Shown here in pieces: positions 20,840 through 40,581 of a DNA stretch of 64,000 nucleotides; positions within the stretch are counted from its first letter, which is position 1; the number at the start of each line of letters is the position of its first letter. Under the pieces are notes generated by a model. That model worked only from the letters and a program-made list of their open reading frames with translations. It had not been told where the DNA came from and ran no database searches. The stretch comes from a virus. The stretch lies in the IMG/VR virus record IMGVR_UViG_3300042549_007727; one strand, given 5' to 3'. The position numbers and the translations under genes are program-made.

Positions 20840-21295
20840 ATGCATTACGACAAAACAGAGATGGCTAAAAAACTGGCAGAGCTACTGTCTGAAGTAGTTA
20901 CTGCAAAGTTCATAATGCAGGGCTACCACTGGAACGTACTTGGCCCAGACTTCGGTGAGTACCACGAGTTCTTTGGCGAACTTTACGAGGACCTAGAGTC
21001 ATCTGTTGACCCAATCGCAGAGAATATTCTTAAGATTGGTTACCCAGCTCCGTACTTACTGTCCGACTTTTGCGAACTGTCAAAGATTCAAGAAGCTAGA
21101 CAAGATGGTTCATCTTCTAGATTCCTACTAGAGTCCGCTCTAAGAGTAAACCAGTGCGTACTTGATTCTTTGATGGAGGCTTTTGTTTGTGCAGAGTCCT
21201 GCAGCGAGCAAGGTCTTATGGACTTTTTAGCGGGACGTATTGACACCCACAAAAAGTGGAACTGGCAAATTAAGGCCTTCCTAGGAGTTCGCTAA
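20840..21295 (+). CDS. dps: Dps / ferritin-like DNA-protection protein
   Basis: HWNVLGPDF..YHEFF..LY......D.IAE ferroxidase signature; HKKWNW C-terminus. Confidence 0.88.
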   Translation: MHYDKTEMAKKLAELLSEVVTAKFIMQGYHWNVLGPDFGEYHEFFGELYEDLESSVDPIAENILKIGYPAPYLLSDFCELSKIQEARQDGSSSRFLLESALRVNQCVLDSLMEAFVCAESCSEQGLMDFLAGRIDTHKKWNWQIKAFLGVR

Positions 21296-22599
21296 TGTCT
21301 GAGTATCTACAAAGCGTTCTTAAAGCTGCAGGTGGCCATGCCGCTCCTGTAGAAAACCTAAAAGAAAAAGACATTCGTGCTTCCCTAGAGGCAGCCGGAA
21401 TGCTTGTACCAGAAGAGCAAGACCTTGCCGATGCGCTACTAGAGATTGTAGAGAAGCATGGAAAATTTAACGACGACAACACTGGCGTTTGGGCTGGCTA
21501 TACTTCTGCTAAAGAGAATGCAGAAAACGCAGAGATTGGCGTTAAGTGCGGCAACTGTGTTTTCTGGCAAGCACCTAACGGATGTCAGATTATTGTTGCT
21601 GAGGTAGAGGAAGGCGGCCTATGTCGTTTTGCTGTGCTCCCAGACGGATCTGTAACTCCTGGTTCCTCTACTCCTAGCGAGGAAGATGAATCCAAAGAGC
21701 CTGTAGAAAAATATTTCTCTAAGGAGCCAAAGCTAATTCAAGACCTACTAAAGTCTGCAATTAGCGAAACAGAGGACGAGTACTCAGACGAGTATCTAGA
21801 TATCTATGACCTAACTCCAACACAAGAGACCGTCGATTCTTCAAACTTCAAAGAAGCTGCTGACTATGAAAAGCCAGTAGTAGTTTACAGAGATGACTCT
21901 GGAATGTATCTTGTTGATGGACACCACAGGTGCGCTACTAAAGTAAAAAACGGTGGCAGTGGGATTAAGGCAAAAGTATATAAACAGCTATCGCTAATAG
22001 CGGCAGCCGAGTCTGAAGCTAACCTTAAAAAAGATGCAGATGACCCTTGCTGGTCCGGATACGTCCAGGTTGGAATGAAAAAGAAGAACGGTAAGCGCGT
22101 ACCTAACTGCGTACCGTCAGCTGCCACAATTAACATGCTTGTAGATGACTTTAACTCTCAGTTTGGGTCCGCTCGTCATATTACTAAAGAAGCTGCCTAT
22201 TCAGTAGCCCGAAGTGCCCTTGAAAGGTACAGCGACTTGTCTGACGAGGAAATATACTCTGCCATCCTGTGGGAGCTACACGCTTTCGCTGAGTACGCTA
22301 CTTCAGGCTCTGTGGAAGACGTCTCAGATGACTTCTCCGAGTACGCAGGGTTGACAGCTGAAGGCCACCCAGGCAGGCAGTCTTCCATAGTGGCAGCTGC
22401 AACATGGATTGCCGGTGCTTCCGAGCTGTCCGAATCTTCTAGAGATGCAATAGCAAATGCCTTTAATGACGAGCTAGACCAAGTAGATTCTTTGCATGCA
22501 GCAACTAGAGTCCGTGCTCTTATTTCTAGTGGAGCGCTATCTGATAGCACTCTAGCTCAAATAAAAGCCTTACCAGAAAAATACCCTAAAGTCAGCTAA
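21295..22599 (+). CDS. multidomain head-module protein (HiPIP-like Cys cluster + ParB/Srx-like domain)
   Basis: CGNCVFW..C...GGLC; YLVDGHHR; PCWSGYVQVGMKKKNGKRVPNCVP. Confidence 0.6.
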   Translation: MSEYLQSVLKAAGGHAAPVENLKEKDIRASLEAAGMLVPEEQDLADALLEIVEKHGKFNDDNTGVWAGYTSAKENAENAEIGVKCGNCVFWQAPNGCQIIVAEVEEGGLCRFAVLPDGSVTPGSSTPSEEDESKEPVEKYFSKEPKLIQDLLKSAISETEDEYSDEYLDIYDLTPTQETVDSSNFKEAADYEKPVVVYRDDSGMYLVDGHHRCATKVKNGGSGIKAKVYKQLSLIAAAESEANLKKDADDPCWSGYVQVGMKKKNGKRVPNCVPSAATINMLVDDFNSQFGSARHITKEAAYSVARSALERYSDLSDEEIYSAILWELHAFAEYATSGSVEDVSDDFSEYAGLTAEGHPGRQSSIVAAATWIAGASELSESSRDAIANAFNDELDQVDSLHAATRVRALISSGALSDSTLAQIKALPEKYPKVS

Positions 22600-22656: not shown

Positions 22657-25600
22657 ATGCTCGACGGCAAAAACCCTGAATTCGAACCGATTATTTCTAG
22701 TATCGGATTTAACGATGGAGCTAACAAAGGCTTCTGGAGAATCCAGCCACGTGACGACGAAGGTCAGTGGATCGAGATGGGCGCGGACGTATTGTTCCGC
22801 TTTCGTACCGGAAGCGGTAACTTAGTTGTTGCTACTGAGCGTGGAGTTTATGTAGGACCTGGCGGTCGTCCTGGAATGGCCCGAGTCTTAATTTCAAAAG
22901 ACACCGAGTCTGGACTAAAGGCTGGCGTCTATCAAGTAGAGTCAAGAAACTTGCAGCAGTTCAAGGCAATTATTCCAAACGCTAAATCTAAAGCGGGTGC
23001 GCCAGCGGCTAGAAAAGACAAGTTCGGTAAGCCAGTAAGAACTCTAGAAGATTCCAAACTACCAGCGCTACAAGATTTGCTTTCTGGTTCTCAAGAAATT
23101 ACAGAAGAAGATCGTCGTCTAGCTCAGGGTGATCTAACTCCAGAAGAGCGCGAAGCCGAGCAGGATGGAAGACAGAAGTCTCCAGTTGCAGATTTGCCAG
23201 CTGGTTTCGAATCTGAAAACCCAGAGGAAGTAAAGAAACTTCTCCGTGAGTCAGGTGTTGATCCAGACGAGTTTGACAAAAATACTAGCCCTAGTTTTGA
23301 ACAAGATCCAGAGCTAGCAAAGAAGGCTCAGGAAGCTACTAAAGGCCAACTACTAAGAAAAGAAAAGCCTACAGCTTATGGTCGCGGCAACACTAAAGAC
23401 TTCTCTGAGCTACCAGACGGCACCGTTTTAGATGAATATCAGAGAGCTCAGTTCTACCCATCCCTCGACAGCTACACCGGACCGTTTGGCCCAGTGTGGC
23501 GTCAAATAATTAAAAAAGATGGTAAATGGTTTTTACGCGGTAAAGATGGGAAACCAAAAGGTGCTGCACTAAAAAGAGCAGACTTAATTGCCAGACTCAA
23601 TAGCGGAACTTTAGCTGACACCGGTGCTGGCTCTAAGATCGATGAAAATGGAAATCAAGTCGCCGCTTGGGCAGACGAAGTCGGTCAGCTAACTCCTTCA
23701 GAGATAGCTAACTCCGACCCGGCCGATGATGTAGTTAAAGACTTAATGGCAGATGTGGCTTTTGACGGCGACACTACTCCAGATCTAGATTCAGTTCTTA
23801 AAAAGCAGGAAGCTTTAATATCTTTTAGAGAAACCGCTAAGACTCAAAAAGTCCCTTTTGATCTTGACCGTGGAGATATTGTTTTAGGTGAAGACGGATC
23901 AGAAAAAACAATTCTAGATGTTGAATTAGGAAACGCTGCCACCGGAGTTCCAGCTAAGGTTAGAGTACAGAACTCTGACGGAAGCATCGAAGAGCTTTCC
24001 GTAAGCATGAGGGACAAATTAAATATTGCAACTGGACGGCGTGGACAGATAAAGCGTCCGCAAGCCCCGGCCTCTAGACCCGAAGCACCTACTCCGGAAG
24101 TAACTGCCCCGGAGGCCCCGAGAGTAGATCCTGAAACTGTAGAGCCTGGAGAGATGGCCCCTGAAGACGGTTTAACTGTTGTCATGACCCCAGATGGTCT
24201 AGCCCCGGCCAACTTCCCGCCTGAAGATCGACTAGATGACGGCTCTAACTTTGATCTCCCTACGCTAACAGACGAAGAGTTGGCTGCAGCTCGAGGAATG
24301 AGCTTGTCACCTCTTCTAGATCCTGATGGCACTCCTGCAAAATACGTTGACGAAAATGGCAATCTTGTAGACGCAGAAGATCCTTTTGCGATGTTAGCTG
24401 CTCTTGCTAAGGCGTTCCCTAACGCTAAATTTGCTCCTGACGGCTCACTAATTTTGCACCGCCAAGTAGATACAAAGAGCGGAAAGATTTTTGAGCTCCG
24501 AGCCAGCAACTCCGGTAAGAGGGCTATCGTATACTCCTTCAGGTTCTACAATCCTGCAAACCCTGAAGACTATGTAGAGTATCAGCACAAAGACGATAGG
24601 CACTCGGTAACTGCACTATTTAGCGAGGCAAACGGTCCCGAAGGGCTATTGGACAGACTGCTCGGTAGGGTAGATCGAAAAGGAAAAAATTGGGGCCTAC
24701 CGGAAAACTTTAAATTCGGTAACACTAGGTATCAAAAATCTGACAGCTTATTTAAAAGATCCAGATGGTTTAGGTCTGGTACTGGTGACCGCAAAAAAAT
24801 GGAAGAAATTGGTGACAACGCCGTTCGTCTTGCTCAAGGTAGAGCCGCAGTTCTAGAAAAAGAAACCAAGAGAATTAAAAACAGCGCTATCCCGTCGCTA
24901 TGGGAGGCATTTGATGAACTATTTAAGTCGGGCCCAACAAGCGAAGAGCGAGATGTAGAGCTTAAAGACATGTTCTACCAAACCCTATACGGTGTCTTTG
25001 GAAGAATTCCACTTGGCGAAAAGTCTCATGCAAACGCTAGAAAAGCTATTCGTTCAGAATTTAGACGAAAGTTTCCTACTGCCAGCAAAAAAATGGAGCG
25101 CGCTTTTAACGGCTACGTAACTTCTGCGTCTGAGCGTATGCGCGGAATCTACAGAGGAACTGATCCTCAGGTTAGATCTATTAGATATGCATCTAAAGAT
25201 AGAACAAGAACTATTGAACGAGGCATGACTGTAGAGTACACCAACAACGTTGGGCAAACTTCTATAGTCAAGGTCACTGATTTAGTCGAGAACACTACTT
25301 CTAACCCCAACGATAGGGACTCGTACGACTACGGCGACAATGTTATTGTTACAGATGCTAACGGCCGGAAGATAAGAATAAATGCTATCAAGCTAAAAAT
25401 CATGCTGTCTCAGGGCACCCCTCTTACCGCATACAGACCTAATCTTCTAGGTGAAGAGCTGCGCCAGGCTAGAATTGACAGTGGACTTGCAGAGGCACCT
25501 AGCACTTCTCGACCTAGAAGAATTCCAGGTGCTGGCACTGTAATATCAGATCCGGCACCGCCTCCAATGCTTGTCGATGACTTTGTTGTAGGTGAGATGC

Positions 25601-25767
25601 TCTACAGTAAGTCAAATGGCGCTCCTCTTGGAATAATTAAAGCAATCAGACCGACTACTTCTCGTAATGGCACTCAGGGGCTAGCGTTCCTATACACATC
25701 GCCTGACGGTACCGAAAACCAGGTTGCTTACGCTTTAGGTACGGAAGTAACACCAAAAAAAGTTTAG
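22657..25767 (+). CDS. large head-module protein (probable internal/ejected virion protein); 0-frame product
   Basis: Between portal and protease; QPRDDEGQW motif; ends at an A7 slippery site. Confidence 0.7.
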   Translation: MLDGKNPEFEPIISSIGFNDGANKGFWRIQPRDDEGQWIEMGADVLFRFRTGSGNLVVATERGVYVGPGGRPGMARVLISKDTESGLKAGVYQVESRNLQQFKAIIPNAKSKAGAPAARKDKFGKPVRTLEDSKLPALQDLLSGSQEITEEDRRLAQGDLTPEEREAEQDGRQKSPVADLPAGFESENPEEVKKLLRESGVDPDEFDKNTSPSFEQDPELAKKAQEATKGQLLRKEKPTAYGRGNTKDFSELPDGTVLDEYQRAQFYPSLDSYTGPFGPVWRQIIKKDGKWFLRGKDGKPKGAALKRADLIARLNSGTLADTGAGSKIDENGNQVAAWADEVGQLTPSEIANSDPADDVVKDLMADVAFDGDTTPDLDSVLKKQEALISFRETAKTQKVPFDLDRGDIVLGEDGSEKTILDVELGNAATGVPAKVRVQNSDGSIEELSVSMRDKLNIATGRRGQIKRPQAPASRPEAPTPEVTAPEAPRVDPETVEPGEMAPEDGLTVVMTPDGLAPANFPPEDRLDDGSNFDLPTLTDEELAAARGMSLSPLLDPDGTPAKYVDENGNLVDAEDPFAMLAALAKAFPNAKFAPDGSLILHRQVDTKSGKIFELRASNSGKRAIVYSFRFYNPANPEDYVEYQHKDDRHSVTALFSEANGPEGLLDRLLGRVDRKGKNWGLPENFKFGNTRYQKSDSLFKRSRWFRSGTGDRKKMEEIGDNAVRLAQGRAAVLEKETKRIKNSAIPSLWEAFDELFKSGPTSEERDVELKDMFYQTLYGVFGRIPLGEKSHANARKAIRSEFRRKFPTASKKMERAFNGYVTSASERMRGIYRGTDPQVRSIRYASKDRTRTIERGMTVEYTNNVGQTSIVKVTDLVENTTSNPNDRDSYDYGDNVIVTDANGRKIRINAIKLKIMLSQGTPLTAYRPNLLGEELRQARIDSGLAEAPSTSRPRRIPGAGTVISDPAPPPMLVDDFVVGEMLYSKSNGAPLGIIKAIRPTTSRNGTQGLAFLYTSPDGTENQVAYALGTEVTPKKV

Positions 25768-25782
25768 GCCCCTCTCAGGGGC
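25755..25782 (+). other. -1 programmed ribosomal frameshift signal
   Basis: A AAA AAA in phase, 6-nt spacer GTTTAG, hairpin GCCCCT-CTC-AGGGGC; -1 frame open to 27914. Confidence 0.75.
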
Positions 25783-27914
25783 TCATCTCATTCAGAGAAG
25801 TACAAGTAAATCCTGACTCGGACGTCGAGTTTGATTTACCTGATTGGGAAGACGTCCCTTCTGAAGTTAGAGCCCTACCAAATGCAGTCATCCCTGAGTT
25901 TATAGATTCTAAAGCTGTAAGGGCCCTACCAGAGTTTGCAAACTTAAGTAGATATGGTGGAGCTACTTATGAAGCTAACCTAGAAGCAGCTGCAAAAAGA
26001 GCATACCTACTGCGCGATGAGATGCACCGAAGAGCGATGCAAATCTCGAGTTTCCCGGCTAGAGACCTTCTTGGCACCGGTTATCAGCTAGATAAAAACT
26101 CTATTTCCCTAGGCGAAGAAGTTCCAGCCTCTAGCATTTCAATCCTAAGAAATGCGGCGTTTGACTCGCAAGACTTAAGTTTTGCTCGCGCTGTGGTAAA
26201 AATTGCTGGAGCAAAAAATCCCAGTTCAAATTTTTACAATGAGCAATTTGAAAAAAGTTTAGCGTTTTTTGTCCAGTTCCTTAGGTCAGACGACCCGAAT
26301 CTCACGATTGACGAAACTGTAGACGGTATCCTTGAGCGAGGGGTAAAATTTACACCTAGTTCGGGCTCGGAGAGTGTTTCGCCTTTTGGATCCATTCGAG
26401 TGCCTTTCAAGGTTACAAGAACTGAACAAACTAAAAACGGGTTCATAACTCCTTCGGTAGATATGTCTCCTTATAGGGCTTCTGTAGGAGTTTTAAATAA
26501 TTTTTATTCAAATAATTTAACTCCAACCGGCCTCAGGCCTGAAAAGACTTCGTTAGTCATTAGCGCAACTAACGAATTGGCCTCAGCTGAGTACACAAGA
26601 GTAACTACTTTGGTTAAAAAAGACGGCTTCTCGGGGGTTCAGGGAGTCAACATAGCTACAAACACGTACGGCAACGTTGTGCCTATGACTAATGAAAATG
26701 AATCTCTAGACCTTATAGCGTCTACAGTCACAAATAATACGATTATTATCAACCACGAAAGCGCTTCTAAAACACCGTCTGCTTTCAGGATAGATCCTAT
26801 AGTTGAGACAGTTCTACATGAGTACGGCCACACAGTTGAAAGCAATGTTTTGGGCGTCACCTGGGGGTGGAGCAACAACTCAAGCACTGAAGCCTATGCT
26901 GAAGTCAAGGCTAGAAAAGTTTCAGAGTACGGTGAAAACAACATTCGTGAGCACTTTGCCGAAAGTTTTGCTAAGTACCTGGGCTCAGGGCAGGCTTCTA
27001 AAGAATTTAGAGATTTCTTAGAAAACCAAGTTGGAATAAAAGAACTAAGCTTAGAGACCCTTTTGCCAAAAATTTTCCAAAATGATAATTTTGTAGACGG
27101 ACTAGAAAAATACTTAAACGAAAACGCGGATTTGGGCGGGTACACCGTAAAGATGACTTCAAAGGGTAATAACACAAAAAATGCAGATCTAAGGACCCTA
27201 TTAAATAGAAAAGGAAGTAGTAGGCATCTTGGCGTAACTCTATCGTGGGAGGCAAGCGTACTAGATTCCCAGGGTCGGGATACTGGAGGATCTGGAATGT
27301 CTAGAGCTCTAAAAGTAGATCCAAATACTGGCGAAATTACAGTCAGCCATCTATCTTTTAAGCTTGGTGACAGCGTTCAAGGTCTCGGCCTGGGGGAAAA
27401 GATCACAAAAGCAGCGGTAGAATACTATAAATCTATAGGAGCAGACAGAATAAAAACATCTGCAGCTGCCACCGATAGCTACCCAAACGGCGCTTACATG
27501 TGGGCTCTTCAAGGGTTTGATTTTGCAGATTCAGCAGAAAGAGATATGTATCACAAGAGGGTTAAGCTTGCTTATGCTGCTTTAAGCGAATATGCTGCAG
27601 ATAGCGAAAGATACAATTCTATGGACTTTATGGAAGTCAGCAGAGAAATTGCACGAAAAACAAACTCTGACCAAACCTCGCTGCTACAGCTAATCGCTGA
27701 ACTAAGAAGAAACGGTTGGGTAATCAGTAATGATCTTCTCAACCAACTAAAGTCAATAGCGGACAAAAACGGAGTAGAAGTTACAGCTAAACTTATTGCA
27801 GAAATAGGCAGAGGCAATAAAAAAGACAAGGGAAAGAAGTTTTCTACCCTTGGTAGGCACATTATGGTGGCTACTGCGAGAGGCTGGAGTGCAGTTATGG
27901 AGCTGAAGAATTGA
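25761..27914 (+). CDS. -1-frame extension: zincin metallopeptidase + GNAT-like effector domains
   Basis: Frame open from the slippery site with no RBS/start before 26022; HEYGH...SEYG..N.REHFAESF; QGLGLG...GAYMWALQGF. Confidence 0.75.
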   Translation, partial: SLGPSQGLISFREVQVNPDSDVEFDLPDWEDVPSEVRALPNAVIPEFIDSKAVRALPEFANLSRYGGATYEANLEAAAKRAYLLRDEMHRRAMQISSFPARDLLGTGYQLDKNSISLGEEVPASSISILRNAAFDSQDLSFARAVVKIAGAKNPSSNFYNEQFEKSLAFFVQFLRSDDPNLTIDETVDGILERGVKFTPSSGSESVSPFGSIRVPFKVTRTEQTKNGFITPSVDMSPYRASVGVLNNFYSNNLTPTGLRPEKTSLVISATNELASAEYTRVTTLVKKDGFSGVQGVNIATNTYGNVVPMTNENESLDLIASTVTNNTIIINHESASKTPSAFRIDPIVETVLHEYGHTVESNVLGVTWGWSNNSSTEAYAEVKARKVSEYGENNIREHFAESFAKYLGSGQASKEFRDFLENQVGIKELSLETLLPKIFQNDNFVDGLEKYLNENADLGGYTVKMTSKGNNTKNADLRTLLNRKGSSRHLGVTLSWEASVLDSQGRDTGGSGMSRALKVDPNTGEITVSHLSFKLGDSVQGLGLGEKITKAAVEYYKSIGADRIKTSAAATDSYPNGAYMWALQGFDFADSAERDMYHKRVKLAYAALSEYAADSERYNSMDFMEVSREIARKTNSDQTSLLQLIAELRRNGWVISNDLLNQLKSIADKNGVEVTAKLIAEIGRGNKKDKGKKFSTLGRHIMVATARGWSAVMELKN

Positions 27915-28261
27915 ACGAATTAAGCGAATATAGAGACTTATACTTTAATTTTATATCGACTAGGCAGCTACCAGACGATATTGAAGAGTGGCCCGAGGCA
28001 GATCAAGAAGAGTTTTATGCCCTGTCAGATGAGCTCTCTGCTAAGTACCGTAAGGCAGAAGAGGAGCGTCTAGCACGTCCTCTAGATAAGCAAGAGCCTG
28101 AAGGCTTCTACATGATAAACATCACCCTAGAGACTGATGACGGTCCTATATATCAGAAGCTGGACATCAGGACCTTACCGCTAGAAAAGCTCTCGTCGCT
28201 GTGCGCTACTTTCCCCCAGTACAACGACTACTACTTTAAAAAAGCACTAAACATACAATAA
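27911..28261 (+). CDS. small acidic hypothetical protein (immunity-like position)
   Basis: TTGA overlap with effector stop, RBS GGAG. Confidence 0.65.
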   Translation: MNELSEYRDLYFNFISTRQLPDDIEEWPEADQEEFYALSDELSAKYRKAEEERLARPLDKQEPEGFYMINITLETDDGPIYQKLDIRTLPLEKLSSLCATFPQYNDYYFKKALNIQ

Positions 28262-28726: not shown

Positions 28727-31700
28727 ATGTCCGATGCTCGTATGTATACAATCCCAGGTGGAGTTCAGGCCGAAGCAAAAAAAGCTCTTGCATGGCGTAA
28801 AGAGTACAAGCGCGGTGGTACACCTGTTGGATTGAATACTGCACGCACTCTTGCTAAGGGCGGACAGATTGGCATTGAGAAAATTCGTCACATTGCTAAA
28901 TACTTCCCTCGTCACGAAGTTGATAAAAAGGGTAAGGGCTGGGCACCAGGCGAAGACAAGTTTCCTTCTAACGGTCGTATTGCATGGGCACTCTGGGGCG
29001 GAGACGCTGGACAGCGTTGGGCATCTGCAATTGTAGAACGTGTAAATAAAAAAGAATCTACCACTGCTTCTGCTGGCATATACGGTGTAGAAGATTTACA
29101 GCCAGAGAGCGAATTAAACGCTTTCAAAATGGCGCATGAATTAGACCCGAACGTTGGTCCAGAGTTTATGTGCCGAGTTCGTCTAGACAACTCTGGAATC
29201 GACAGACTATACAAAATAGACATTGATGGTCAGATTTATGTCTGGGATGGTTCCGTTTGGGACAACATGGGAGACGTCGATGGAGATGTCTATCTCTATG
29301 ACTCAGAGCTAGATAATCCAGACGATTTAGTAAAGAAGACCCATGTTTTGGTGGACCCTTCTTCTGCTGTAGTTATCTCTGCATTCCTACAAGAGCGCCC
29401 TTTCACTCCAGTACTTCTAGAGGAGATTGACCCTGAGGAAACTCAGATGATGTACGACGCTCTAGCTGAAGAAGATTTTGACTTCATAGACAGAGTTATA
29501 ACTTCTGCCGGTGTCCCTCTTTCAGGGGAAGGCGACGGTGTCTACACCGAAGACGAGCGTTCAGAGAATGCATCAAAGCAGGTAAGAGACGCTACTGGAA
29601 GATTTGCTACTGTAGGTCAGAGAGTGGCCGTGGGCGGAGACATACAAAGAGGCTCTGGAACTATAACCAAACTAGACGCAAAAAATGGGTTAGTCGACGT
29701 TAAACTAGACAGTGGAAAAACTGTAACTATTGATAGCAAATTCAGCCAGCCACTAAAAAATATCCCTGGCCCTATAGCAACACCTAAACTTCAAGATGTA
29801 CCTTTAGATTTGTCCGGCATAATTGGGGAACCTAGAACACCAATTAATATGCCAAAGGCACACCTTCCGGGCTCGCTGCCCCCTATGACTTCAGACGAGC
29901 TTCAACTTATGCTTGACGACTTTCCTAGTTATGTCAGACGCATGCGTCAGTCCTACAAACCTTACGATAAGGCGGACAAAGATAGGGTGCAAAAGAGATG
30001 GGGCTCAGACGTAGCTCAAGAGGCGTCTATATTAGCTTCGGCTGAGAAAGAGGAAGCTCTAACCCCAGAGACTACAGATGTTCCTGCTAAATACTTAGCC
30101 ATAGTATCTCCAGACGACCTTGAAGCGGTTATGGACTTAGTAGCAATAGTACCTGCGTCTAAATCATCTACCGAGCCTACTACTTATGTCAGAGAAGACG
30201 AGAAGTGGGTACCAAATCCTCAAATTCTGCGCGATCTAAAGTCAGCTTCGCCACCACCGGTTGCAGCTCTAACTGACAAAGATATCTTGAACGATGTTCT
30301 CTTGCAGGTTGATGGCAAAGCTCCAGTTGTTGCAACTGGGTTGCCATTCTTCTTGTTCTGGGAAAAAGTTGTAGAGCCAATTCTGGCTGCTGGTGGACTA
30401 GACCGTAACCGAGGCAATGCCGAAGAACTTCGACGCTACTGGACATCCGGTAAGGGTGCTGCCAAGATCCGCTGGGGTACTCCCGGAGACTGGACCCGCT
30501 GCGTCCGCAACCTCTCTAAGTACATGGGCCCTCGTGCGAAGGGCTACTGCCAGCTTCGCCACAAGGATGCAACTGGTGTATACACCGGGAGCAAATTAAA
30601 CCCTGGTAAGAAAGATAAGTCTTTTAGTACTTTGACTAACTTGTACGTTTCAGAAGAAGCGTTTGATGAGACTATGATTCAAAGATCTAGTCAATCAGCA
30701 GCAGCTAAAGATGCTCGAGAGAAAATTGGACTAGTTGCATCCATTAAAACTGGTAAAGGCTCAAGCTTCACAATTCCAATGCTAGTTCCAGAAGAAGTAG
30801 AGTCTGGAGACGGTAGGAAGTTCCGTAAGGGCTCTATCTCGCTGCGAGACCTGCCAGTCCCTCTACTTTGGCAGATAAAAACTGGATCAGGGCACGATGG
30901 CTCTGTAGTAGTTGGAAGAATTAACACCATAGAAAGAATTGAAGGCGGGCTAGGAAATGCGTCAGGAGTATTTGACGACGGCCCGTATGGAAAAGAAGCA
31001 GAGCGTCTTGTTAGAAACGGGTTCCTTCGCGGTGTATCCGTTGACCTAGATCAGTTTGAGGCAAAAGAAGATAAAAAGCCTAAATCTGAACTTGCAGATG
31101 GCGATGACGAGCAAGAAATCGGTAAAGACAAACTCACTATAAATAAGGCACGCGTAATGGCTGCTACAATTGTAGCTAAGCCGGCATTCCAAGAATGCTC
31201 TATTTTACTTAATGCCGAGGGGGATCAGGAGGAAAACATGACCCCACAAGATGGCGTATATGAAGAGTCTGTCACAGACTTTACTGACGTTGAGCCGCTA
31301 CTAGCTTCAGGATTTCTAGACTCAGAGATACCTGTACTACCACCACAAGAGTGGTTTGAAGACCCTAAGCTAACTAAGCCAACCCCTCTAACTGTAGACC
31401 CAAGCGGTCGCATCTACGGACACATTGCAGCATGGCACGTAAACCACATTGGTATGCCTCGCTCAACTCGTCCACCGCGCTCTCGTAGCAAGTACGCATA
31501 CTTCCACACTGGAGTAGTTAAGACTGATGCAGGCAAGGATGTTCCAGTTGGACAGCTAACTCTTGCTGGCGGTCACGCAGACCTACACGCTAGCGCATCT
31601 CAGGCTGCTAAGCACTACGACGACACAGCTTCTGCAATCGCAGACGTACATGCCGGAGAAGATGAGTTTGGTATCTACGTATGCGGCTCACTGCGTCCAG

Positions 31701-33028
31701 ATGCAAGCGAGATGCAGATCCGTGCACTACGTGCTTCTGCCCCTTCGGGTGACTGGAGACCAATCAACGGCGCTCTAGAGCTTGTTGCAGTTTGTCAGGT
31801 TAACGTTCCAGGATTCCCTATCGCTCGTGCGCTAGTTGCCTCTGGAAAGATTATGGCTTTGGTTGCTGCTGGTGCTAACTACATGGCAATTCTTAAGAGT
31901 GAGCACGTAGAGCACTTTGCGACTAGGGCGCTTCTACTTTCGCAGCTTGCATCAACCTCTCCAGACCTTAAAGGCAGAGTTCGTACTGCTAAAAAAGCTG
32001 CTAGAGCATTTGCACTTGACTCGGCCACACGAAAAGCAGATGAGCTACGAGAAAGAGCTCTAGTTGCTTCTGCAATTACTGAGCTTGCTAAATTTACTGA
32101 AGAAGAAAGAGCAGAGCTGTCTGAAAAAGGTTTTGCTCTACCTGACGGTTCTTACCCTATTCGAAACGAAGAAGATCTAAAGAACGCAATACGGGCTTAT
32201 GGTAGAGCAGAGAAGTCAAAAAGAGCATCTGTTCGTAAGCACATCGTAAAGCGTGCTCGTGCTCTAAAAAAGCAATCATTGATCCCAGACAACTGGGCTA
32301 ACGCTGGATCAGCGGAAGCCATGTCTATCGTTGCTTCAATGAGATCGAAGATCTCAGAGTTTGCCCTGCCAGAAGAAGAGATTACTGACGAAGATCTTGA
32401 AGAACTGATAGACGTTAAGGCAGAAGCTGACAAGCAGACTGAAGAAGAGATTAAGGCAGCTGAAGAAGTAAAAAAAGGTGAAGCCCCTACCGTAGATAGG
32501 GACGAAGATGGTCGTCCTAAGTATGTGTCAGGGGTAAATCAGCCTAGAGATGCTAAGGGTAAGTACCGCACAGTGTTGGCCCGCTTAAAGCAGGACTTAG
32601 GTGTTGCTGGACTATCTAGAGCCCTCAAAAAAGCAGAGCAAGCCGAAAACCTAGACTTTGCCGGAGATTACGCAAATTCAGTTGGAGCTAGCACCGAACT
32701 ATTGGGAATGATAGACCGACTAGATTCAGGTGCCCTAAACGCTAGAGCCCTAGAAAACGTCAGATTGACAGCTGCAGAGCTTGGTAAGACAATTGCAAAC
32801 CTGCCACTACCCTTTGGTAAAGAGGCAAGCAAGCTAAAATTTAGTGATTTGCCCACTGGGCTTAAAGACCTAATCGAACAAATGATTACGAGGGTCGAAG
32901 CCAAGATTGGTAAAGAGGACGCGGACATTGCCACGCAAAGCCTGAGGTCCTATATGTCCGGAGCGGACGTCTACTCTCAGGGTGAAGTTCAGTCTGAGAT
33001 GAGCAAGCTACTCCGACTCCTTACCTAA
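28727..33028 (+). CDS. multidomain capsid maturation (prohead) protease-containing protein
   Basis: 1433 aa just before capsid; ESGDGR...PLLWQ...GHDGSVVVGRI...GVSVD protease-like region; ALPDGSYPI and KIRWGTPGDWTRC domains. Confidence 0.75.
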   Translation: MSDARMYTIPGGVQAEAKKALAWRKEYKRGGTPVGLNTARTLAKGGQIGIEKIRHIAKYFPRHEVDKKGKGWAPGEDKFPSNGRIAWALWGGDAGQRWASAIVERVNKKESTTASAGIYGVEDLQPESELNAFKMAHELDPNVGPEFMCRVRLDNSGIDRLYKIDIDGQIYVWDGSVWDNMGDVDGDVYLYDSELDNPDDLVKKTHVLVDPSSAVVISAFLQERPFTPVLLEEIDPEETQMMYDALAEEDFDFIDRVITSAGVPLSGEGDGVYTEDERSENASKQVRDATGRFATVGQRVAVGGDIQRGSGTITKLDAKNGLVDVKLDSGKTVTIDSKFSQPLKNIPGPIATPKLQDVPLDLSGIIGEPRTPINMPKAHLPGSLPPMTSDELQLMLDDFPSYVRRMRQSYKPYDKADKDRVQKRWGSDVAQEASILASAEKEEALTPETTDVPAKYLAIVSPDDLEAVMDLVAIVPASKSSTEPTTYVREDEKWVPNPQILRDLKSASPPPVAALTDKDILNDVLLQVDGKAPVVATGLPFFLFWEKVVEPILAAGGLDRNRGNAEELRRYWTSGKGAAKIRWGTPGDWTRCVRNLSKYMGPRAKGYCQLRHKDATGVYTGSKLNPGKKDKSFSTLTNLYVSEEAFDETMIQRSSQSAAAKDAREKIGLVASIKTGKGSSFTIPMLVPEEVESGDGRKFRKGSISLRDLPVPLLWQIKTGSGHDGSVVVGRINTIERIEGGLGNASGVFDDGPYGKEAERLVRNGFLRGVSVDLDQFEAKEDKKPKSELADGDDEQEIGKDKLTINKARVMAATIVAKPAFQECSILLNAEGDQEENMTPQDGVYEESVTDFTDVEPLLASGFLDSEIPVLPPQEWFEDPKLTKPTPLTVDPSGRIYGHIAAWHVNHIGMPRSTRPPRSRSKYAYFHTGVVKTDAGKDVPVGQLTLAGGHADLHASASQAAKHYDDTASAIADVHAGEDEFGIYVCGSLRPDASEMQIRALRASAPSGDWRPINGALELVAVCQVNVPGFPIARALVASGKIMALVAAGANYMAILKSEHVEHFATRALLLSQLASTSPDLKGRVRTAKKAARAFALDSATRKADELRERALVASAITELAKFTEEERAELSEKGFALPDGSYPIRNEEDLKNAIRAYGRAEKSKRASVRKHIVKRARALKKQSLIPDNWANAGSAEAMSIVASMRSKISEFALPEEEITDEDLEELIDVKAEADKQTEEEIKAAEEVKKGEAPTVDRDEDGRPKYVSGVNQPRDAKGKYRTVLARLKQDLGVAGLSRALKKAEQAENLDFAGDYANSVGASTELLGMIDRLDSGALNARALENVRLTAAELGKTIANLPLPFGKEASKLKFSDLPTGLKDLIEQMITRVEAKIGKEDADIATQSLRSYMSGADVYSQGEVQSEMSKLLRLLT

Positions 33029-39865: not shown

Positions 39866-40216
39866 ATGGCAAAATTTAAAGATTTTGGTGTAGGAGCTGC
39901 TCCTGAAACTGCAGAAGTTATCTCCTTTAAGCTACACGAAGAGGAATTTTTCTGTGTTCCTCAGCTTCAGGGAAGAGTTATGTTGTCCCTTGTTAAAAAC
40001 TCATCTAGCGAAGACCCTACAGTTGCTGCTGGAACAATTGAAACCTTTTTTGATCAAGTCCTAACTGACGAGAGCTTAGAGCGTTTTAATGCACTAACCA
40101 CACACAAAGACAAGATTGTTACCACGGAGACTTTGGGACAGATTGTTGGATGGCTACTTGAGGAGTATTCTGGACGCCCGGAAGCGCAGCCAGAGGACTC
40201 ATCAACTGGGCTATAG
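39866..40216 (+). CDS. tail assembly chaperone
   Basis: Two genes upstream of tape measure; ends ...YSGRP. Confidence 0.75.
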   Translation: MAKFKDFGVGAAPETAEVISFKLHEEEFFCVPQLQGRVMLSLVKNSSSEDPTVAAGTIETFFDQVLTDESLERFNALTTHKDKIVTTETLGQIVGWLLEEYSGRPEAQPEDSSTGL

Positions 40217-40581
40217 ACCTCTGGCCGTACGTCAATGGTAAGTCCCTGTTTAGTGGAATTAGGTTAGAAGAAATGGAATCATCTGAAATGGTAGATGTGC
40301 TCCACTATCTTTTTGAAGATGACATGAGGTTCACTACAGGCGACGAAGCAAAAGCTCAAGGATCACTTAGAAAAGAGTTGTACAGGCTATACGGAAAAGA
40401 GTACCAGTATGGCTCTTCTGGCTCGGGTGAAACTTATGGAGGTAGAGCCTACATCTCTGACAGCGCAGATGAGTTTAACAGCTCTCCATCGGGCGCTAGA
40501 AAACCGTACGTTGCTCCAACAAATTTCAACCCAGAAGCAGCTAACCCATTTGGGTCAGTTCTAGACGCACCACTCGGATAA
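40162..40581 (+). CDS. tail assembly chaperone -1-frame extension (gpGT-like)
   Basis: -1 frame open from 40162, overlapping chaperone end; first ATG at 40273. Confidence 0.6.
   Translation, partial: GVFWTPGSAARGLINWAIDLWPYVNGKSLFSGIRLEEMESSEMVDVLHYLFEDDMRFTTGDEAKAQGSLRKELYRLYGKEYQYGSSGSGETYGGRAYISDSADEFNSSPSGARKPYVAPTNFNPEAANPFGSVLDAPLG

Follow-up and report, generated by a model that had tools for sequence, protein, structure and literature searches.

The textbook cases of programmed ribosomal frameshifting in tailed phages concern tail chaperones and a small number of capsid proteins. The tail chaperone gpG/gpGT of phage lambda and the capsid proteins 10A/10B of phage T7 are familiar examples, in which a −1 frameshift yields a short form and a C-terminally extended form of the same protein. 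Here we describe a locus that appears to use the same device for a different purpose. In the window, which is the whole 64,000-nucleotide (nt) stretch of IMG/VR virus record IMGVR_UViG_3300042549_007727, two adjoining open reading frames (ORFs), ORF1 and ORF2, are separated by a stop codon and a change of frame. Considered as a whole, the evidence is best explained if the two together make up a single recoded gene in an uncultured actinophage from freshwater, a reading that we regard as likely, wherein a −1 frameshift would append a zincin and GNAT enzyme module to a large protein encoded among head genes.

The major head protein of Lactobacillus phage A2 is a further case of −1 frameshifting (Garcia et al. 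2004, cited in PMC10885494). The window resembles the lambda, T7 and A2 systems in having an in-phase heptamer near the end of a gene of the structural module, a downstream RNA structure and a conserved signal, and in the two nested products that it is predicted to make in a fixed ratio. Unlike in those systems, the extension is an interchangeable two-enzyme module of 717 amino acids (aa) and not a chaperone or capsid-decoration segment, and the zero-frame stop codon is located one codon past the slip site.

Two groups of phage proteins resemble the predicted product in domain content and genomic setting. Polyvalent proteins with lethal factor (LF)-like metallopeptidase (MPTase) and GNAT domains are encoded beside packaging genes (Iyer, Burroughs, Anand, de Souza, Aravind 2017; PMC5512222), in an account from which the word ‘frameshift’ is absent. 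Like these, the window product would be large and multidomain, is encoded beside portal and terminase genes, combines a zincin with a GNAT (ArdC-N with MPTase in some relatives), and belongs to a family whose modules are shuffled. It differs from them in that the zincin is not the MPTase-PolyVal domain (PF18818) and ORF1 lacks the anchor domains described (MuF, portal). Virion packaging is putative for polyvalent proteins and for the window product alike. The MuF polymorphic toxins and MuF-ADP-ribosyltransferase proteins of actinophages likewise combine a head-module carrier, a variable C-terminal enzyme and a small gene that follows, and their parts are fused in some genomes and occupy two ORFs in others. 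Unlike in the MuF systems, no MuF domain is detected in ORF1, and the enzyme types differ.

The nearest published item is a remark on PRFect (PMC10885494), in which MuF-like/VIP2 gene pairs were flagged as possible frameshifts; these are unverified and are listed there among false positives. Our search of the literature found no account of a frameshift by which a large protein of the head module acquires swappable enzymes, and judged from its sequence the locus would represent an undescribed use of a well-known recoding trick.

The proposed slip site and its hairpin

The features that define the proposed recoding event in the window are as follows.

22657..25767, + strand: ORF1, a 1036-aa multidomain ‘carrier’ without known family
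25743..25747, + strand: weak Shine–Dalgarno (SD)-like sequence GGAAG, 7 nt 5′ of the heptamer, as read from the junction sequence
25755..25761, + strand: slippery heptamer A AAA AAA, zero-frame CCA AAA AAA, in X XXY YYZ phase
25765..25767, + strand: zero-frame stop codon TAG, one sense codon (GTT) past the heptamer
25768..25782, + strand: putative stimulatory hairpin GCCCCU-CUC-AGGGGC, 6 nt 3′ of the heptamer
25761..27914, + strand: ORF2 in the −1 frame, 717 codons and a stop, predicted to be entered by frameshift only

ORF1 ends with ACA CCA AAA AAA GTT TAG, and the 6-nt spacer between heptamer and hairpin is GTTTAG. An earlier note on this DNA, made from its letters alone, had proposed a programmed −1 frameshift on the basis of this ORF end, its in-phase heptamer and the hairpin that begins 6 nt after the seven adenosines (A7), and each of these elements was found in the sequence as described. 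A 32-nt segment containing the hairpin has a predicted folding energy of −11.8 kcal/mol, which places it in the lowest 1.1% of equal-length segments between 13 and 50 kb of the window.

According to our model, most ribosomes would stop at the TAG at 25765 and produce the 1036-aa ORF1 protein, and a fraction would slip back one base on A AAA AAA (25755–25761) and read on to 27914. The second product would comprise 1035 residues from ORF1 and 717 from ORF2, or 1752 aa in total, which agrees with the fusion of about 1750 aa that had been predicted. The GC-rich hairpin 6 nt downstream would stimulate the slip, and the adjacent stop codon and the upstream SD-like element may contribute. This arrangement is reminiscent of dnaX and of IS3/IS911-type sites, which share with it an A-rich heptamer read by tRNA-Lys, a downstream stem-loop and an SD-like element, the last being present in most of the lineages described below. 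Unlike those sites, the heptamer is A AAA AAA and not A AAA AAG, and the SD-like sequence is 7–9 nt upstream instead of about 10 and is missing from some relatives. By analogy with dnaX, the SD-like element may have a stimulatory role.

Two other possibilities for the junction were rejected: readthrough of the TAG in the zero frame, after which the next stop codon is 13 codons on, and a pseudoknot between the hairpin loop and a downstream AGAGA, whose pairing is not kept across lineages.

Conservation of the cassette among relatives

Related loci (L-numbers) and related proteins (P-numbers) were compared with the window, and the metagenome loci were collected by a scan that used an ORF2 alignment as query. 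A check of relatives that the earlier note had suggested found the heptamer and hairpin to be kept in nine distinct junction sequences, which represent eight groups of ORF1 relatives (the window clade, L003/4, L009, L039/40, L010, L011-13, L015 and L041), despite heavily diverged synonymous sites. Their ORF2 counterparts are 70–96% identical to that of the window in L001-L005 and 25–36% identical, where aligned, in L009, L039/40, L010, L011-13 and L015; L041 is outside this comparison. In the common cassette, CCA AAA AAA G is followed by one and only one sense codon, then by a stop codon and a hairpin with a CCCC/GGGG core. The heptamer and the G that follows it are invariant across the nine junction sequences, and the stop codon, which is always in the same place, can be TAG, TAA or TGA.

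Codon usage within the cassette genes provides a measure of how unusual this conservation is. AAA accounts for 17–64% of Lys codons and CCA for 23–44% of Pro codons. L015 prefers AAG over AAA by 91:18 (AAA being 17% of Lys) and nonetheless retains AAA AAA in its cassette. If Pro-Lys-Lys is taken as given, the probability that five diverged lineages would keep CCA AAA AAA by chance is ~5e-7, calculated as the product of their own codon frequencies, and the cassette codons are thus kept far beyond the constraint imposed by the protein. Other A7 runs are absent from both ORFs in five of the seven lineages examined.

The hairpin starts 5–7 nt past the heptamer in all lineages, with its GC core beginning at +7 or +8, and its folding energy falls within the lowest 0.08–3.3% of equal-length segments of each lineage’s own locus. 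The core is constant, and the loops and the flanking or outer pairs vary between lineages. For example, the stem is 9 bp in L013 (CUAGCCCCU/AGGGGCUAG), is UCCCC/GGGGA with a U-A closing pair in L041, and is CCCCGA/UCGGGG with an 8-nt loop in L015. These hairpins were judged from folds of the individual sequences, and the MAFFT alignment of the junctions is not structure-aware for L010, L013, L015 and L041. A GGAG(G) sequence is present 7–9 nt 5′ of the heptamer in most lineages, and there is none in L002, L003 and L005.

Several other observations were made on the junction and the runs of adenosines. Additional A7 runs occur only in sequences of the window clade, and in L009, L010, L011, L013 and L015 the heptamer is the sole A7 of the two ORFs. 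The two further runs in ORF1 of the window, at 24793 and 25087, are out of slip phase and have no hairpin after them. A second small stem, CUCU...AGAG, lies directly after the main hairpin (25785..25800 of the window) and is also seen in L010 and L011/L013. At its site an Arg codon is AGA in all frameshift lineages and CGA in L006, where the frame is continuous, an observation that was made post hoc and is of modest significance. An island of about 90 nt (25765..25855) has only 0–2 mismatches per 30 nt between the window and L002 or L005, compared with 3–8 in its flanks. The island is absent in the comparison with L003, and it could reflect a larger RNA element or a recent recombination at the junction.

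A coding frame without a start, and natural fusions

The open −1 frame of the window spans 25707 to 27914, and the shift codon is the AGT at 25761. The first ATG, GTG or TTG of this frame is at 26022, 87 codons past the shift codon, and has nothing SD-like before it, as the earlier note had stated for the first ATG. When these 87 start-less codons are compared between the window and L003, the substitutions at codon positions 1/2/3 number 16/6/43, and of the codon changes 34 are synonymous and 16 non-synonymous. This pattern indicates that they are under purifying selection in the −1 frame. In every lineage, no ATG, GTG or TTG occurs for 40–99 codons past the shift codon, and the first start codon is found at a different place in each, without an SD-like sequence before it. 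In L002, L003, L009, L015 and L041, the −1 frame is closed by a stop codon 3–5 codons 5′ of the shift codon, and the same applies to L004 and L005, which are members of the L003 and window groups.

Some relatives encode the same combination without any change of frame. Protein P0036 of locus L006 has 1773 aa and joins counterparts of ORF1 (residues 18-1052, 44% identity) and ORF2 (residues 1062-1773, 31%) in a single frame, and its junction has neither an A-run nor a hairpin. The Pro and Gly residues that the stem encodes in the frameshift lineages (S-x-x-P-x-x-G) are also absent from the L006 junction, and because of this absence they look like by-products of an RNA structure. In a deeper clade (L018-L030), the linker and zincin form an in-frame extension of 360-373 aa.

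We also constructed a maximum likelihood tree from the last 480 residues of ORF1, with a midpoint root that serves for drawing only. All frameshift lineages are contained within one 13-row clade with support of 100/100, in which L006 and the ArdC-type locus L007, both in frame, are the only exceptions; with the midpoint root, the in-frame zincin clade is placed outside it. This distribution requires three state changes, which fits one gain and two losses of the frameshift. With an invariant heptamer, a positioned hairpin, a start-less −1 frame that is evidently coding, and natural in-frame fusions, the proposal of a programmed −1 ribosomal frameshift gains strong comparative support, and such a frameshift very probably operates at this site.

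The appended module and its variability

The predicted features of the sequence appended by the frameshift are listed below.

25761..25889, + strand: acidic linker, predicted to be disordered, ORF2 residues 1-43, with a predicted local distance difference test score (pLDDT) below 50
25914..27038, + strand: LF/PPEP-like (M34-like) zincin, ORF2 residues ~52-426, from fold and profile
26817..26831, + strand: HEYGH, ORF2 residues 353-357
26949..26963, + strand: E397-H-F-A-E401, within EHFAESF at ORF2 residues 397-403
27090..27911, + strand: GNAT-fold domain with a helical insert, ORF2 residues ~444-717, from Foldseek and VIA-align
27378..27395, + strand: motif A QGLGLG, ORF2 residues 540-545

An AlphaFold model of ORF2, made from 25 sequences, has a mean pLDDT of 83 and a predicted template modelling score (pTM) of 0.72. 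In structural comparisons made with VIA-align, the zincin part matches 1yqy_A, the catalytic domain of anthrax lethal factor (Z 11.3, 223 residues, root mean square deviation (rmsd) 8.5), 9g0j_A or PPEP-3 (Z 10.0, 188 residues, rmsd 4.1), and 6fpc_A or PPEP-2 (Z 9.4, 164 residues, rmsd 3.7). The family profile, when searched against the PDB, reaches lethal factor at E=5.9e-5. All 25 sequences share H353, E354, H357, H398 and E401, and E397 is nearly invariant. The Pfam family ATLF (PF07737) scores 16.6 bits for ORF2, below its cut-off of 27.4, and 21-24 bits for the relatives; L015 passes Peptidase_Mx1 instead (26.6 vs 25.6). The zincin is like peptidase family M34 (lethal factor, PPEP-2, PPEP-3) in having HExxH with a Glu about 44 residues on and a similar fold, and unlike it in its sequence identity of 13–17%, its sub-threshold ATLF score and the lack of the other LF domains.

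For the GNAT part, Foldseek assigns a probability of 1.0 to many GNATs, and VIA-align matches NatD (4u9w_A) with Z 10.9 over 149 residues at rmsd 4.9. Q540, G541, G543 and G545 are invariant or nearly so, such that Q-G-x-G-x-G is kept, and the sequence NGAYMWALQGF is located at residues 576-586. A Pfam search of ORF2 found no match to a GNAT family. In the preceding linker, a D-x-D-F-D-L-P motif is conserved and is common to the in-frame relatives. The assignment of zincin and GNAT domains, which had been suggested from the motifs HEYGH, EHFAESF, QGLGLG and GAYMWA.QGF, is borne out by these folds and profiles. Thus, the identity of the appended 717 aa as an M34-like zincin followed by a GNAT is supported by modelling, and the enzymatic activities of both are predicted. 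The long form would then consist of ORF1, a disordered acidic linker, an LF/PPEP-like zinc metalloprotease and a GNAT acyltransferase.

Four module types occupy the same position in different relatives, in accord with the earlier suggestion that this part of the protein might be polymorphic. A zincin with a GNAT is found in the window clade, L009-L013, L039/40 and L006. The zincin stands alone in L015, which has the frameshift, and in L018-L030, which are in frame. In L041 (3500..4079), also a frameshift locus, it is joined to a further domain of ~170 aa without a Pfam match. Finally, L007/L008 carry ArdC-N and MPTase-PolyVal domains, in frame. The zincin is the constant part in the zincin-type relatives, and the GNAT and other additions vary. 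L015 and L041 together show that modules turn over behind one and the same cassette. An exhaustive phmmer search also found the zincin and GNAT parts each apart from the other in other large multidomain proteins, and P0099 joins an ORF2-like part to ArdC-N and MPTase-PolyVal. We note separately that P0101 and P0158 (4416 and 7601 aa) contain 7–8 stretches that match the GNAT-like part of ORF2.

A small gene coupled to the module

A further gene overlaps the end of ORF2, as had been noted earlier.

27911..28261, + strand: gene for a 116-aa acidic protein, whose TTG start overlaps the ORF2 stop codon TGA (TTGA), with translational coupling to ORF2

A GGAG sequence is located 8 nt 5′ of the TTG, and the protein has a net charge of about −13. 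Homologues are found directly 3′ of the module in every zincin-type locus examined that extends that far, and the C-terminal half of the protein is conserved even where the module is a zincin alone (L015, L025-L030). In the ArdC-type loci L007/L008 no homologue of the 116-aa protein was found, and a 55-aa gene is present there instead.

Co-folding of ORF2 residues 45-717 with the 116-aa protein gave a score of 0.47, compared with 0.00 for the best of three controls, which is a weak pass. Among benchmark cases, 58 of 80 solved complexes passed, as did 2 of 110 mismatched pairs, and the passes with scores of 0.60 or less comprised 7 of the 80 solved complexes and both of those mismatched pairs; these benchmark counts apply only roughly, as custom alignments were used for our co-folds. 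At least 56% of contacts are common to the runs, and the partner has a pLDDT of at least 75. The earlier note had viewed this gene as coding for a cognate inhibitor. Its conservation and its association with zincin-type modules stand, and an inhibitory role is not established by a weak co-fold pass. Based on these models, it is possible that the 116-aa protein is a partner or inhibitor of the zincin module.

The ORF1 protein and its genomic neighbourhood

ORF1 has 79 homologues. Its identity was sought with Pfam, PHROGs, ESM Atlas, Foldseek against the PDB and BFVD, and a wide VIA-align search. Neither Pfam nor PHROG yielded a family match for ORF1 or any of 34 homologues (35 proteins in total), and INPHARED contained no match to the region by megablast or to ORF1 or ORF2 by tblastn. 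The structure model of ORF1 has a pLDDT of 69 and suggests that residues 397-463 form EF-P/KOW-like (SH3/KOW/Tudor-like) barrels (Z 9.9), residues 717-833 a helical bundle and residues 849-920 Tudor-like barrels (Z 7.5). Matches in BFVD to large actinophage ADP-ribosyltransferase or polyvalent proteins had a very low template modelling score, and we rejected them as unusable evidence.

The gene order before the junction is terminase (16989), portal (19088), a gene for a ferritin-like protein, a gene for a 434-aa protein, and then ORF1 and ORF2. After ORF2 come the 116-aa gene, a 132-aa gene, a gene for a 1433-aa protease fusion, the major capsid protein gene (33117) and tail genes. All 652 of the 652 phage records matched by the capsid protein are actinophages, and the best match is the lake phage DSL-LC01 with 68% identity. 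The window stretch is itself present in 20 lake-water metagenome runs from 19 studies.

Some of these neighbours deserve mention in their own right. The ferritin-like (Dps-like) protein is 151 aa long (20840..21295; Pfam Ferritin E=1.2e-13). Its gene comes immediately after that of the portal and keeps this place in every related locus that extends there, giving the head module an unusual constant component. The 434-aa protein (21295..22599) has a sub-threshold match to a ParB-like nuclease (ParBc_2, 20.8 bits vs 23.6); its length varies, the L009 version having 315 aa and the L007 version, which includes DUF5824, having 492 aa, and it may be another cargo-type protein that adjoins ORF1. The 1433-aa protein (28727..33028), probably a fusion of a protease with a scaffold, exhibits homology to prohead proteases (S78, PHROG head maturation protease) and to other PHROG families. 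It could process ORF1 products. Farther downstream, two small ORFs (39866..40581) precede the tape measure gene, and the second is in the −1 frame relative to the first. A tail-chaperone frameshift would be expected here, and a quick look at 40130-40300 revealed no obvious heptamer.

Alternative explanations

The main mechanistic rival to ribosomal frameshifting is transcriptional slippage, wherein RNA polymerase would add one A within A7 and the same fusion protein would be made. Slippage needs only a homopolymer run, A7 is invariant, and the product would be identical. However, it assigns no role to a 3′ hairpin at the distance of a ribosomal stimulator or to a stop codon fixed one codon later, and the window clade tolerates the two out-of-phase A7 runs in ORF1. 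Furthermore, seven adenosines make a short run for efficient slippage by bacterial RNA polymerase, and we judge this mechanism improbable. We consider it very improbable that ORF1 and ORF2 are two separate genes, in which case ORF2 would rely on a non-canonical start or on termination-reinitiation and the hairpin would be intergenic. Gene callers do annotate two genes in every relative, but the ORF2 starts they call differ from one relative to another, purifying selection extends up to the slip site through codons that offer neither a start nor an SD-like sequence, single-frame versions exist in L006 and L018-L030, and the −1 frame is closed just upstream in five junction sequences. The likelihood that the split arose from an error in sequencing or assembly, or marks a pseudogene in decay, is negligible. 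Homopolymer runs are prone to error, and an extra A had been named as the main alternative; yet contigs from four runs (X1, X12, X14, X16) cross A7 without an indel, which excludes a sequencing error. The independently assembled relatives L001-L005 have the same ORF1/ORF2 split, with the cassette kept wherever junction DNA exists, all three stop codons are represented at one position, and both frames are under purifying selection across a deep divergence.

A different question is what the frameshift product would do. Because ORF1 is located between the portal gene and the prohead-protease and capsid genes, and because its relatives carry interchangeable C-terminal modules (including ArdC-N with MPTase), the product is probably a virion cargo protein of the polyvalent type. 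ORF1 would serve as the carrier, the frameshift would set the ratio of bare to enzyme-armed carrier, and the enzyme module would have host proteins as its targets early in infection, or would process its own protein. Packaging, injection, a low copy number and a low frameshift rate are conjectural, as are the targets of the module. If the frameshift is real, the module could instead act in the producing cell by self-processing, by processing head proteins or by acetylating virion components, which we think rather unlikely while recognizing what speaks for it. The MPTase domains of polyvalent proteins were proposed by Iyer et al. to auto-process, as in P1 DdrB (PMC5512222), the gene lies among morphogenesis genes near the 1433-aa protease fusion, and the zincin is the module’s constant part. 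Conversely, the anti-restriction type of module, ArdC-N with MPTase, holds the same position in L007/L008, and the GNAT and other additions vary like conflict modules.

A number of points weigh against a frameshifted virion cargo protein, and slippage has to be counted among them. The fusion product is a prediction from sequence, as is any abundance assigned to it. The heptamer A AAA AAA is less studied than A AAA AAG as a bacterial shift site, the hairpin is short (5–9 bp), and its invariant core leaves few true compensatory changes. DSL-LC01, the nearest cultured phage (L045 801..10670), has at the ORF1/ORF2 position an unrelated 3289-aa ORFan, located upstream of maturation protease genes, for which neither a Pfam domain nor profile similarity to ORF2 was found. 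The earlier note had called ORF1 a head protein, and its position among head genes agrees with that description. MuF (PF04233) was not detected with Pfam at E<=0.01 in ORF1 or the 34 homologues, and fold searches with the ORF1 model found small barrels only and no structural-protein family, so that a remote relationship to MuF is still conceivable. Because ORF1 matches no such family, its virion location is a positional inference only.

Implications

With these caveats in mind, a tentative picture of a Gag/Gag-Pol-like dosing scheme in a deep clade of freshwater actinophages can be drawn, which we offer as possible although doubtful. A fixed minority of a head-associated carrier would receive an interchangeable enzyme cargo, namely an LF-like protease by itself, with a GNAT or with another domain, and the co-conserved small acidic partner would restrain that cargo until ejection, after which host defences would be disabled.

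If the frameshift reading is correct, it would provide a simple stoichiometry rule for phage cargo enzymes, and it would explain many of the ‘split’ giant genes in annotations of metagenomic phages. The cassette of about 35 nt would be a natural tool for testing frameshifting in Actinobacteria, and the LF-like protease and GNAT pair, with its possible small partner, would become candidates for anti-defence or host-takeover activities. The presence of in-frame and frameshifted versions within one gene family constitutes a natural experiment on the need for the short form, and the phenomenon may be widespread.

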